Source of the DNA: a virus
Taxonomy: Duplodnaviria > Heunggongvirae > Uroviricota > Caudoviricetes
Virus record (IMG/VR): IMGVR_UViG_2690316131_000008
DNA: 16,062 nt
Strand: one strand, 5' to 3'
The notes beneath the pieces were generated by a model. That model was not told where the DNA came from. It was given only the letters and a program-made list of their open reading frames with translations, and did no database searches. Shown here in pieces: positions 3,712 to 9,021 of the stretch. Within the stretch, counting starts at the first letter, position 1. The number at the start of each line of letters is the position of its first letter. The translations under genes were made by a program, and so were the position numbers.

Positions 3712-4107
3712 TTACCGAGTTGCTAATTTGCAACTCGCTTTTTCGTACTTACTGATAGTGATCTCGACCTTCCCCTCCGGGATAACCGGTCCCCACTCCA
3801 CCAGCATTCTTTTCACCTGTCTGTCGTCTTCCCACACACCCGCGTGGGTCAGGGCGTCAAACAGCGCCTTGTTATAGTTGTCCAGATCGCGGATCCGGTT
3901 ATCCGGAGGAAACAACACGATCTCCACTGAAGCAGGTGCCGACGTTGGTTTCGGCAGACGACGTAACTGCTCAACTATTGCTGCACACGCCGCGCTCTGG
4001 AATTTTCGCCCCGCCGCGCTTATCAGGCTCTTACCAGCAAACGCCCCTTTGTTGGGGTGTCGCCAGTACGTGTTCACGCTGGGCGGAAAAGGCAGTATTA
4101 GCTTCAT
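3712..4107 (-). CDS. rusA: RusA-family Holliday junction resolvase
   Basis: MKLILPFPPSVNTYWRH...DLDNYNKALFDALTHAGVWEDDRQV matches the RusA signature (LPxPPSxNxYxRH; DLDN; acidic catalytic residues). ATGA overlap with the upstream gene. Confidence 0.8.
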   Translation of the reverse strand: MKLILPFPPSVNTYWRHPNKGAFAGKSLISAAGRKFQSAACAAIVEQLRRLPKPTSAPASVEIVLFPPDNRIRDLDNYNKALFDALTHAGVWEDDRQVKRMLVEWGPVIPEGKVEITISKYEKASCKLATR

Positions 4108-4430
4108 ACTTTCAGGCCCCTCTCATGTAACCAGTGGGCTGCACGCAGCCTGGCGTTTGCCTCACCGGCAAGCAGGGCGCGGATAATCCCGACCGCCTCG
4201 CTGTCGTCGTCCTTCACCGCGGTATGAAGAGTGATACCCCGGGCCACGCCACGCTTTATCGTGATGACACCTTTTTTCTCCAGTGCGCGAAGATGCTCCA
4301 CCGCTGCATTCACCGAACGGTATCCCAGCATGGTTGCCACCTCCTGATTGGTTGGCGGGAAGCCACGTTCTTTCTGATAAGAAATCAGCATATCCAGCAC
4401 CTGCTGCTGGCATTGAGTTAATGTCGTCAT
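4104..4430 (-). CDS. LexA N-terminal DNA-binding domain protein, no peptidase domain
   Basis: MTTLTQCQQQVLDMLISYQKERGFPPTNQEVATMLGYRSVNAAVEHLRALEKKGVITIKRGVARGI parallels the LexA N-terminal winged-helix domain. Only 108 aa, so no S24 domain. ATGA overlaps at both ends. Confidence 0.65.
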   Translation of the reverse strand: MTTLTQCQQQVLDMLISYQKERGFPPTNQEVATMLGYRSVNAAVEHLRALEKKGVITIKRGVARGITLHTAVKDDDSEAVGIIRALLAGEANARLRAAHWLHERGLKV

Positions 4431-6904: not shown

Positions 6905-7546
6905 TCATGCGTTAGTTTCTCCACAACCAGAAGCAATCGACGCCACGACGCCCGGAGCTGCACACTCGCGGGCGTTACTCTTTTCCGGCGCACAAAAAAC
7001 ACGAAATAACAGTGTTAAATGCTCCTGCCACTTCGCCATTACTTGGTAGCTGTTCTCTTCGATTTGCTCACGCTCAGCTTGGTCAATAACTCCATCAGCA
7101 GTTGCCTTGCGTAAGTACTGGGAATGCTTGCCAATCCATTCTATTGACTCCATCAGCCGCTGATTAATGTCACCATTGTCAATGTCATCAATGACCACCA
7201 GCGGCACAAACACCCCATTACTACGACGGGCTATTGCATCCGTTACATGCCTGGTACCACTGGCATCCTGTAAAACCATGGCCCACTCAAGTGGAAAAAT
7301 TTGATCCCCACCGCTACGCAGTCTGTTATGCAATTGATCTTTTGCTGGGGTGATATCATCAGATTTATACAAACCAAGAATTTCTGCTGCTTCCTCATAG
7401 CCATGAGGTAAATCAGCAATCGTTCTTCGTATTGCTGCCACCAGCCATGCTGGTTGCTTATCAACTTTCCATTCAGGTTCTTTACCCACGTTTAAGCCCT
7501 CATATCTGTGGTTTCTGTAAATCGATTTATCCATTAGATTTTTCAT
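6905..7546 (-). CDS. YdaT/CII-like putative regulatory protein
   Basis: Sits directly downstream of the Cro/YdaS-like gene, where lambdoid and Rac-type prophages carry cII or ydaT. Start set at the ATG at 7546 (MKNLMDK...), since the track ORF (to 7603) would overlap cro by 77 nt. Functional assignment is positional. Confidence 0.45.
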
Positions 7547-7727
7547 AAAGCTCAGGTTTAAATGGCAACCGTCCGCAAGTTCTATATGCAGCCTCTGCTG
7601 CACGTCCTTTTGGAATTAACTGGCCAGGACGGTTTCGCCACTGATAAACGGCTTCAGTTGTTATGCCGAAAAAAGCAGCAACTTTCTCAATGCTGCCGAA
7701 GTAGCTTTCGATATCGTCAGTCGTCAT
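7527..7727 (-). CDS. Cro/YdaS-like HTH transcriptional regulator
   Basis: 66-aa protein; [46 protein letters not shown] fits the Cro/YdaS-type HTH pattern. Divergent from the CI-like repressor across a 97-bp operator region. Confidence 0.7.
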   Translation of the reverse strand: MTTDDIESYFGSIEKVAAFFGITTEAVYQWRNRPGQLIPKGRAAEAAYRTCGRLPFKPELYEKSNG

Positions 7728-7738
7728 ATGCCCTCCAA

Positions 7739-7803
7739 ACTAAGTTTTATTAGATGTTAATTATCAATCTATCTTAGGTCAATAAAAACTAAGATTACTT
7801 AGT
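7739..7803. promoter_or_regulatory. Divergent promoter/operator region (OR-like) with two 16-bp operator-like sites
   Basis: ACTAAGTTTTATTAGA (7739-7754) and ACTAAGATTACTTAGT (7788-7803) share the pattern ACTAAG-N4-nTTAGn with inverted half-sites, in the 97-bp gap between cro and cI. Confidence 0.5.
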
Positions 7804-7824
7804 AATTAAAGAAATGGTGCTCCT

Positions 7825-8451
7825 ATGGAAACGGTTGGTCAGCGTATAAAAGCTCTGAGAAGAGTTACCAGAACGTCCCAGAAAGAATTGGGTAAATTTT
7901 GTGGAGTAAGTGACGTTGCTGTGGGGTACTGGGAGAAAGACATCAATGTCCCTGGTGGGGAAGCACTTTCAAAATTAGCGAAGTTCTTCAATACGTCAAT
8001 AGATTACATTCTTTATGGTGCGGAGTTTGAAGGCAAACTCGTCACAAACATGCGCAGAGTTCCTGTAATCTCGTGGGTTCAGGCTGGGCAGTTTACTGAG
8101 TGCAGGACAGCAGAAGTGTTTAGTGAAGTAGACAAGTGGGTAGATACATCATTAAAGATTGGTGATAACTCATTTGCATTGGAGGTTAAAGGCGACTCCA
8201 TGACTAACCCTAACGGCCTCCCAACAATACCAGAAGGCGCAACAGTGATTGTAGATCCTGATGCAGAACCCCGGCATGGAAAAATAGTCATCGCTAGACT
8301 TGATGGAACAAACGAAGCCACAGTAAAAAAATTAGTTATCGATGGCCCTCAAAAGTTTTTAGTGCCATTAAATCCCCGGTACCCCAACATCCCGATCAAT
8401 GGTAATTGCCTCATCATTGGTGTAGTCAAAGGAGTTCAATACGAACTCTAG
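7825..8451 (+). CDS. CI-like phage repressor (N-terminal HTH, C-terminal S24 LexA-like peptidase)
   Basis: N-terminus QRIKALRRVTRTSQKELGKFCGVSDVAVGYWE is an XRE-type HTH. C-terminus carries GDSM (Ser nucleophile) and VKKL (Lys general base about 40 residues later), as in LexA/lambda CI. Confidence 0.85.
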   Translation: METVGQRIKALRRVTRTSQKELGKFCGVSDVAVGYWEKDINVPGGEALSKLAKFFNTSIDYILYGAEFEGKLVTNMRRVPVISWVQAGQFTECRTAEVFSEVDKWVDTSLKIGDNSFALEVKGDSMTNPNGLPTIPEGATVIVDPDAEPRHGKIVIARLDGTNEATVKKLVIDGPQKFLVPLNPRYPNIPINGNCLIIGVVKGVQYEL

Positions 8452-8470
8452 CCCCCCTTTTCTCTAACCA

Positions 8471-8508
8471 AAACACCGAACTAAGAAAAGTTTGGTGTTT
8501 TCTCTTGC
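8471..8508 (+). terminator. Putative terminator downstream of cI
   Basis: 11-bp stem (8471-8481 / 8490-8500, one G-U pair), 8-nt loop, followed by tctcttg. The U-tract is weak. Confidence 0.35.
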
Positions 8509-8540
8509 CATCAAAACTAAGTTAAGTTAGATTTTATATC
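8505..8540 (+). promoter_or_regulatory. Putative early-left promoter (pL-like) with operator-like site
   Basis: TTGCCA (8505-8510), 17-bp spacer, TAGATT (8528-8533). Overlaps a third copy of the operator motif, ACTAAGTTAAGTTAGA (8516-8531). Confidence 0.3.
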
Positions 8541-8628
8541 AAAGATAACGAACAGGCAGGACGCCCACGAAGTAGCCGACGGTGGCGTATGAATGACCGG
8601 ATGATTCGCAAATGGCAGGAGAGTGAAT

Positions 8629-9021
8629 ATGGATGGCAGTATCGACAACCAACGAGATGCCTGGCTTGTGGTGATTGAAGCAGCAAAAACTGCATTAAGC
8701 CAAGTTGAAAGCAGTAACTACAGAACAGTTAAACAAATGGCTTTGGGCTCTATTATCTATGCCTTTGAAAAGCTGGGCTTTGATTTTGAAGCAACGAGTA
8801 TTCTGTCAGAACAACATGAAAAAATGAATAGAGAAGACGCCGCAGCCTATATCGGCGTAGAAGCGCAAACCTTAGCTAATTGGGCTAGCACAGGAAAAGT
8901 TCGAATACCTTTTTTAAAAATCGGTAGAAAGGTTATTTACCTAAAAAGTGATCTTGAGCCTATCTTGCCTCATCGAAGGCAAATACCACCAAGTAGCTCA
9001 CGTACCTACCACCTCGCCTGA
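8629..9021 (+). CDS. HTH (excisionase/AlpA-type, HTH_17-like) DNA-binding protein
   Basis: C-terminal REDAAAYIGVEAQTLANWASTGKVRIPFLKIGRKVIYLKSDLE fits the excisionase/AlpA-type HTH pattern. ATG at 8629 with AGGAG 7 nt upstream (the track start at 8623 is a GTG). First gene after cI on the plus strand. Confidence 0.5.
   Translation: MDGSIDNQRDAWLVVIEAAKTALSQVESSNYRTVKQMALGSIIYAFEKLGFDFEATSILSEQHEKMNREDAAAYIGVEAQTLANWASTGKVRIPFLKIGRKVIYLKSDLEPILPHRRQIPPSSSRTYHLA

Follow-up and report, generated by a model that had tools for sequence, protein, structure and literature searches.

Predicted operators of a P22/phage 21-type immunity switch with CTAAG half-sites, and a structured RNA in the adjoining early-left leader

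Introduction

A CI-like repressor gene flanked by several copies of one short dyad raises the question of whether these copies are the operators of a lambdoid immunity switch and, if they are, to which immunity specificity they belong. We have addressed this question for a 16,062-nucleotide (nt) stretch of DNA from a tailed phage (Caudoviricetes; IMG/VR record IMGVR_UViG_2690316131_000008), hereafter the window, which is the early region of a lambdoid phage. A preliminary description of this DNA had reported three 16-bp copies of an operator-like motif, two between cro and cI and one downstream of cI at the putative early-left promoter (PL), and had read them as the right (OR) and left (OL) operators of the switch. 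The analysis presented here indicates that three strong sites (OR1, OR3 and OL1) and two weaker ones (OR2 and OL2) are very probably the operators of an ordinary lambdoid switch of the P22/phage 21 family. This prediction is based on the presence of three sites where 0.01 would be expected, on their overlap with promoters, on a geometry shared with P22 and phage 21, on phylogenetic footprinting, and on the co-variation of the sites with the recognition helix of CI.

Results

Operator-like sites and their promoters

All three 16-mers occur exactly where they had been described, at 7739-7754 (ACTAAGTTTTATTAGA), 7788-7803 (ACTAAGATTACTTAGT, a perfect palindrome) and 8516-8531 (ACTAAGTTAAGTTAGA). 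When the window was searched for ACTAAG-N5-TTAG, four matches were obtained for these three sites because the palindrome counts on both strands. The expectation from dinucleotide-preserving shuffles of the window is 0.01 ± 0.10 matches, and none of 200 shuffles reached four. As a whole-genome reference we used mEp460_4F5 (LR595868, 42,927 bp), a phage 99.8% identical to the one studied here. The strict motif is confined to the same sites in that genome, and no further copy was found there or in the window. A symmetric weight matrix built from the three strong sites gives them almost equal scores (23.6-25.5), compared with 15.8 for a site at 8479 and 10.6 for the best unrelated position of the window. 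The functional unit is better drawn as an 18-bp site of the P22 type with a 4-bp A/T centre. The centres of all sites are composed of A/T only, and their invariant core reads CTAA(G)...TTAG, with variation at the innermost position of the second half-site. A separate observation concerns the pentamer CTAAG/CTTAG, which is strongly under-represented relative to random sequence, with 13 copies in the window versus about 31 expected and 18 in the mEp460_4F5 genome versus about 84. Six of the 13 copies of the window, and about one third of those of the phage, fall in the OR/OL region.

A consensus promoter scan of positions 7500-8800 returned two hits only, the early-right promoter PR and PL, each overlapping a strong site. 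The predicted PR is located on the minus strand at 7754-7782, with a -35 hexamer TTGACC (7782-7777), a 17-nt spacer and a -10 hexamer TAACAT (7759-7754). OR1 (7738-7755, AACTAAGTTTTATTAGAT), the 18-bp version of the copy at 7739-7754, overlaps the last two nucleotides of this -10 hexamer and the predicted transcription start. OR3 (7787-7804, AACTAAGATTACTTAGTA), whose core at 7788-7803 is the perfect palindrome, adjoins cI. It contains the hexamer TAAGAT (7790-7795, plus strand), a candidate -10 element for the promoter for repressor maintenance (PRM). By analogy with P22, whose OR3 was found by sequence comparison to hold the same TAAGAT hexamer at the same place, PRM is probably located at OR3. 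Between OR1 and OR3, a weak candidate for OR2 (7762-7777, ATCAATCTATCTTAGG) lies in the spacer of PR and abuts its -35 hexamer; it was assigned by position and analogy. The partial motif copy previously noted at 7771-7777 (ATCTTAG) does exist and forms the right half of this weak central site. Centre-to-centre distances are 23 bp from OR2 to OR1 and 26 bp from OR2 to OR3.

On the other side of cI, the scan predicts PL on the plus strand at 8505-8533 (-35 TTGCCA, 17-nt spacer, -10 TAGATT), so that the copy at 8516-8531 indeed falls on a predicted early-left promoter, as had been proposed. OL1 (8515-8532, AACTAAGTTAAGTTAGAT), which includes this copy, begins 4 nt past the -35 hexamer and overlaps 5 nt of the -10 hexamer. 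Upstream of PL, an intrinsic terminator hairpin for cI is found at 8470-8501 on the plus strand (inverted repeat I7), with a 13-bp stem and a 6-nt loop. Its folding energy is -15.6 kcal/mol (z = -4.74 compared with shuffles). A second partial copy of the motif reported at 8480-8495 (ACTAAGAAAAGTTTGG) was recovered at the apex of this hairpin. Drawn as an 18-mer (8479-8496, AACTAAGAAAAGTTTGGT), it is the site with the intermediate matrix score of 15.8, and it is a plausible OL2, located 36 bp from OL1. Relatives retain the terminator hairpin but build it from different stem sequences, and the OL2 sequence is conserved as CTAAG-N4-GTTTG(G/A) while the stems change. Moreover, the centre of the OL2 dyad is offset by 2 bp from that of the hairpin, and OL2 is therefore not merely the hairpin read as a palindrome. 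One stretch of DNA (8470-8501/8479-8496) thus seems to double as a terminator in RNA and as an operator in DNA. Nothing convincing as a third OL site was seen upstream of OL2 in the window, and some relatives have a lone extra CTAAG half-site there.

Conservation of the sites among relatives

Loci for comparison were gathered from species-representative genomes (12 loci), from phage LLS and from 80 IMG/VR contigs. Homologues of CI were found in about ten enterobacterial genera, including Escherichia, Citrobacter, Salmonella, Enterobacter, Leclercia, Klebsiella, Raoultella and Kluyvera. The immunity module, defined as at least 80% of positions 7500-8650, is present in 513 of 5,426 complete E. 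coli genomes. Footprinting was performed on 11 diverse sequences from Escherichia, Enterobacter, Kosakonia, Kluyvera, Rahnella, Serratia and Gilliamella, whose CI proteins are 57-100% identical. Across this set, the half-sites and the promoter hexamers are invariant (entropy 0-0.3). Variation is seen in the site centres, at the innermost position of the second half-site and in both leaders, with a mean entropy of 0.95 for that of cro and 1.18 for that of cI, which follows OR3 and is the most variable stretch. In OR1, CTAAGTT (7740-7746) and TTAGAT (7750-7755) are invariant and the centre varies. In OR3, the invariant positions are 7785-7795 and 7799-7802, i.e. AAAACTAAGAT and TTAG. They include the AT of the candidate PRM -10 hexamer (7794-7795), which lies in the centre of OR3 and is invariant although OR1 has TT there. 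The -35 hexamer of PR is invariant and its -10 hexamer is conserved as TAnnAT; at the -35 position of PL the relatives have TTGACC. OR2 reads ACCAAT-N4-CTTTGG in most relatives, the CTTAG seen here being particular to this allele.

The sites and the repressor change together. The CI helix VSDVAVGYWE is invariant in all homologues at least 81% identical, and in all relatives with such a CI the OL1 core CTAAGTTAAGTTAGA is unchanged, only the outer A of the 18-mer varying. In the Gilliamella relative, whose CI is 57% identical, the helix is VSDVTVGFWE, with two substitutions, and CTAAG...TTAG sites are kept; a CTAAGATAACTTAG site is found there just past a TTGACT hexamer, farther downstream. Two proteins that are 38% identical overall have only the first eight residues of CI in common and possess another helix (GWGYQSRVGNYE), and their loci carry ACAC..GTGT repeats in place of the motif. 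The recognition helix of Cro, EAVYQW, is also kept in relatives.

Exact matches to the OL1 18-mer were collected from IMG/VR, 120 in total. As many as 104 are located downstream of a same-strand cI homologue, at a distance of 64-153 bp and, with one exception, of 64-76 bp. The remaining ones are four cut by contig ends and 12 in a single unrelated phage lineage. In this metagenomic lineage (IMG/VR loci L113, L137, L150, L152, L155, L157, L172, L185, L189, L196, L228 and L230), each contig has one exact AACTAAGTTAAGTTAGAT about 47 bp upstream of a divergent open reading frame of 115 codons (MRTLNDYFLT...), with no cI homologue nearby. Its occurrence in these 12 related contigs is probably one inherited chance or convergent event; by our estimate, about two chance matches to an 18-mer are expected in a sequence collection as large as this one, so that a single copy is roughly within chance. 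Another similarity was noted between OR1 and OL1, which are 81% identical over 31 nt including their flanks (7729-7759 versus 8506-8536; TGCC.TC.AAACTAAGTT...). This flank similarity (repeat family D1) is not kept in relatives, and we rejected it as a coincidence.

Genes and layout of the immunity region

The gene between the two predicted operator sets (7825-8451, plus strand) encodes a repressor of 208 residues with an N-terminal helix-turn-helix domain and a C-terminal LexA-like self-cleaving domain (HTH_3 and Peptidase_S24 in Pfam), in agreement with its previous designation as CI-like. It is 47.3% identical to P22 c2 over its full length (E 3e-66) and 48.8% identical to phage 21 cI, which are the closest repressors of known specificity. 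Structures matched in the PDB are the N-terminal domain of P22 c2 (2r1j, E 7e-10) and the C-terminal domain of lambda CI (2ho0, E 4e-28), as well as 3bdn. Residues Ala87-Gly88, Ser125 and Lys168 are invariant among homologues, which points to RecA-dependent self-cleavage for induction. The divergent gene at 7527-7727 on the minus strand, already called cro, encodes 66 residues belonging to the P22_Cro family of Pfam (E 4.4e-11), with 30% identity to P22 Cro (E 4e-9). It is the first gene of a lytic operon of the rightward type, here read leftward. The lambda-type layout claimed in the preliminary description is thus borne out, but mirrored. A cI gene with helix-turn-helix and S24 domains diverges from cro, the dyads between them overlap PR and the likely PRM, and a second operator set is placed at PL on the far side of cI, with OL1 in the promoter and OL2 36 bp upstream.

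Beyond cro, a CII/CP76-like gene is recognized by Pfam on the minus strand (6905-7603), followed farther left on the same strand by replication genes and genes for Dam, RusA, KilA-N, DUF968 and a Q antiterminator. To the right of cI, every gene is on the plus strand, as early-left genes. The nin-like region contains, at 4104-4430 on the minus strand, a gene for a protein of 108 residues in which the LexA DNA-binding domain (PF01726, E 2.9e-19) is the sole domain, the S24 protease domain being absent. This product could be a phage-encoded, non-cleavable LexA mimic.

Comparison with phages of known immunity

P22 and phage 21 have operators in the form of 18-bp dyads, whose consensus ATTTAAGATATCTTAAAT is made up of TTAAG half-sites around a 4-bp centre that is not contacted (PMC5175364), and A/T-only centres are preferred by the P22 and 434 repressors (PMC3317979). 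When compared with those of known immunity groups, the sites described here have the geometry of P22 and phage 21 and different half-sites. Besides the homologous full-length repressor, the Cro protein of the same Pfam family and the 18-bp dyads with a 4-bp A/T centre, P22 also shares a tripartite OR with a weak middle site. The promoter register is the same. In both phages, the final two bases of the PR -10 hexamer are also the first two of OR1, P22 having TTGACT-16-TATAAT and the present phage TTGACC-17-TAACAT followed by ATCTAATAAAACTTAGTT, and OL1 has the same position in PL (TTGACC-ATTT-[AATTAAGAAGTCTTAAAT]T in P22 versus TTGCCA-TCAA-[AACTAAGTTAAGTTAGAT]T here). The sole systematic difference between the sites is at position 3 of the 18-mer, which is C:G here and T:A in P22, so that the half-site is CTAAG instead of TTAAG. 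A search of the window with the P22 consensus gave no site at up to one mismatch, and the hits at two mismatches are at chance level. The module is thus related to P22 and phage 21 through CI, Cro and a dyad in fixed promoter register but, having no TTAAG half-site, is of a different specificity. The recognition helix of CI is SDVAVGYW whereas that of P22 is SNVAISQW (N32D, I35V, S36G, Q37Y), and a parallel Ser-to-Tyr change is seen in Cro (AVYQW versus AVSQW). In P22, Val33 occupies a pocket formed by the four thymine methyls of TTAA (PMC5175364); this valine is kept here as Val31. Other differences from P22 are a cI leader of about 21 nt with a Shine-Dalgarno sequence, where the P22 gene starts right after OR3, the fusion of OL2 with the cI terminator with no evident OL3, and the lack of an N/gene-24 antiterminator downstream of PL.

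Phage 21, whose operators were taken from the annotation in OL657228, has its OL1 in the register seen here and is very similar in spacing, with 22.5/25.5 bp in OR versus 23/26 bp here and 35 bp versus 36 bp between OL1 and OL2. It differs by its P22 half-site and by the presence of nutL/boxA and N after PL, where the phage studied here has another leader RNA and no N. Lambda likewise has cI and cro diverging from a tripartite OR that covers PR and PRM, a second set at PL downstream of cI and a LexA-like cleavable domain, but its operators are 17 bp long and of unrelated sequence, and its N-terminal domain belongs to a different sub-family. OL and OR are 2.4 kb apart in lambda and about 0.78 kb apart here. 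Two phages appear to belong to the same immunity group as the phage studied here. The CI of mEp460_4F5 is 100% identical and that of LLS (PQ299149) 89% identical. OR3 and OL1 are identical, OR1 differing only at the outer base and in the centre. The PL leader of LLS is another one, without the RNA element described below. Others have reported that CI and Cro of LLS are closest to those of mEp460_4F5, and that the nearest repressor of known specificity to LLS CI is that of P22, at 47% identity (PMC12315714, Genome Research, August 2025).

A structured RNA in the PL leader

The operator set is adjoined by a structured RNA of 73 nt (8543-8615, plus strand), which is not part of the set and is located in the PL leader. 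With a covariance model (R1), a single hit was obtained in the window (8543-8615, 83.5 bits), and likewise a single hit in the complete phage genome. Its structure, deduced from an alignment of 15 diverse copies (A2), consists of a closing helix around an invariant GGC-AGGAC-GCC hairpin, an invariant single-stranded CACGAAGUAGCC and a second hairpin with a conserved 12-nt loop. Compensatory changes are present for 11 of the 14 pairs, and 95.7% of the cells are paired versus 74.7% in shuffles (none of 500 reached the observed value) and 23-46% with slid partners. Single-sequence folding of the PL leader gave no better result than shuffles (z = 0.13), the structure having emerged only from covariation.

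Homology to phages of other immunity starts just downstream of PL and stops about 60 nt further on. The element is present in e14, ST64B, SfV, SfII, SfIV, ZF40, YeP1, SPN3UB and mEp237, in Yersinia, in an Aeromonas phage and in T5-like Providencia phages, as well as in over 1,300 E. coli genomes. Those temperate phages that were examined have it behind a repressor gene and a strong promoter. In a T5-like Providencia phage, what precedes it is a promoter-like sequence, and the annotation shows no repressor gene in the vicinity. Several copies are then followed by a boxA-like CGCTCTTTAAC. A mosaic boundary is seen at about 8608, similarity to other prophages ending at the 3' strand of the closing helix, and the first genes after it vary from phage to phage. 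In E. coli K-12, e14 (locus L007) shares the RNA element and has an unrelated repressor, YmfK, with TGTACC-type repeats. The annotation of neighbours as YmfL had suggested that e14 might be of the same immunity. We rejected this, as the e14 ymfK and ymfT proteins are unrelated, the repeats are of the TGTACC type and only the PL-leader element is shared.

We also considered whether this RNA is a put antiterminator. Like the put sites of HK022 and HK639, it is a cis RNA located just downstream of PL in lambdoid phages without N. It differs in topology, two hairpins being enclosed by a closing helix where put has two stems next to each other, and in occurring as one copy per phage. Model R1 gave no match in the fetched regions of HK022 (immunity/early region), P22, phage 21 and LLS, and none in the complete genome of HK639, whose annotated putL resembles that of HK022, and identity with put was rejected. 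No Rfam 15 family reached its gathering score anywhere in the window, a permissive search of 8440-8700 gave only chance-level hits, and a literature search for the core sequence of the RNA found no paper containing it. A simple scan detected no strong plus-strand terminator downstream in the window. Candidate functions are antitermination, transcript stabilisation or the release of a processed small RNA. It could also be that phages lacking N have here a previously undescribed type of early-transcript element acting in cis, such as a processive antiterminator with no relation to put, an idea that we consider rather doubtful.

Discussion

If the sites are operators, the switch would work in the manner known for this family. 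Each dyad would be bound by a CI dimer whose helix-turn-helix motifs recognize CTAA(G) in the two half-sites, the 4 bp of A/T between them not being contacted. CI at OR1 and OR2 would cover the -10 hexamer and start, and the spacer and -35 hexamer, of PR, whereas CI at OL1, helped by OL2, would fill the spacer and -10 hexamer of PL. With both promoters covered, both early lytic operons would be turned off by steric exclusion of RNA polymerase. OR3, lying over the likely PRM, would serve for negative autoregulation by CI. It would also allow Cro, expected to recognize the same operators as CI, to turn off cI. Repression would be released by RecA-stimulated self-cleavage of CI (Ala87-Gly88; Ser125 and Lys168). 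Binding, order of occupancy, cooperativity, the position of PRM and the residues that read the C are what we infer from the DNA and protein sequences.

Several points weigh against this assignment. OR2 is weak by sequence (matrix score 5.9), its CTTAG half is CTTTG in most relatives, and it was placed mainly by position. The consensus scan of 7500-8800 gave no convincing -35 match for PRM. It is OR3, lying over the likely PRM, rather than OR1 that has the best palindrome; read naively, this would make CI repress its own promoter first, and the order of occupancy is therefore not deducible from sequence. CI and Cro may occupy the sites in a different order from that in lambda. Conservation of the OL2 half-sites could partly reflect constraints on the terminator. 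Likewise, the conserved blocks are in part the promoter hexamers themselves, and conservation alone cannot separate the two functions. Finally, the operator specificity of the LLS/mEp460_4F5 repressor group was called unknown, and probably novel, in 2025 (PMC12315714).

The overlap with promoter hexamers leads directly to another explanation, in which the conserved blocks would serve PR, PRM and PL as promoter elements only (-10 hexamers, and A/T tracts of the spacer or UP-like type) and the repeat would merely result from the similarity of the promoters. Promoter function does explain part of the conservation, as TAGATT of PL, the AT of TAACAT of PR and the candidate TAAGAT of PRM are all inside sites. 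But the CTAAG of the left half of OL1 (ACTAAG) is invariant despite its location in the PL spacer, where sigma-70 needs no particular sequence. The outer half of OR1 is downstream of the start site, the dyads keep their symmetry around a variable centre, and the same geometry has been experimentally established as operators in P22 and phage 21. We regard this explanation as very unlikely. A slightly smaller likelihood may be given to the view that Cro, or some other phage regulator, is the main reader of the sites, CI recognizing a different sequence that escaped notice. In favour of this view, Cro belongs to the P22 family and has a recognition helix that is conserved together with the sites, and the sequence alone cannot name the binder. 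Nevertheless, inverted-repeat and matrix scans of the cI-cro and cI-PL intergenic regions found no other repeated dyad, and the CI helix is invariant where the sites are kept and changed where the sites change. To our knowledge, CI and Cro share operators in every characterised lambdoid switch.

The A/T-rich character of the region and the A/T-tract centres could also evoke a host nucleoid or regulatory protein, or A/T-rich structural DNA. This is more improbable still, as the motif accompanies one particular cI/cro pair in about ten host genera and is replaced by other repeats in e14, SfV and ST64B, which share neighbouring DNA and have other immunity. As for chance recurrence of a short A/T-rich word, the unrelated metagenomic lineage with its exact OL1 18-mer in 12 related contigs shows that single chance or convergent copies do occur. 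However, three sites against 0.01 expected, all on promoters and conserved across genera, effectively refute it. The operator assignment is retained, and with it the prediction that this module is a diverged member of the P22/phage 21 family in which the change of TTAAG to CTAAG defines a separate, undescribed immunity specificity. A literature search for the operator strings found no paper containing the site sequences. From the shared sites, LLS and mEp460_4F5 are predicted to be homoimmune with the phage studied here. Heteroimmunity is predicted with P22 and with phage 21, the latter because it shares the P22 half-site. In a modest reading of the sequences, a single T-to-C change per half-site would be matched by N32D/S36G/Q37Y-type changes in CI and by the Ser-to-Tyr change in Cro. 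The T-to-C change removes one thymine methyl of the valine pocket, and D30, G34 or Y35 of CI may read the C:G pair.

For the lambdoid paradigm, these results bring no conceptual addition; they are useful, testable and unsurprising. The natural pair TTAAG/SNVAISQW versus CTAAG/SDVAVGYW offers a model for a one-base-pair shift in helix-turn-helix specificity. The operator code of a common immunity module, reported as unknown in 2025 (PMC12315714), now has exact predicted sites and promoters.

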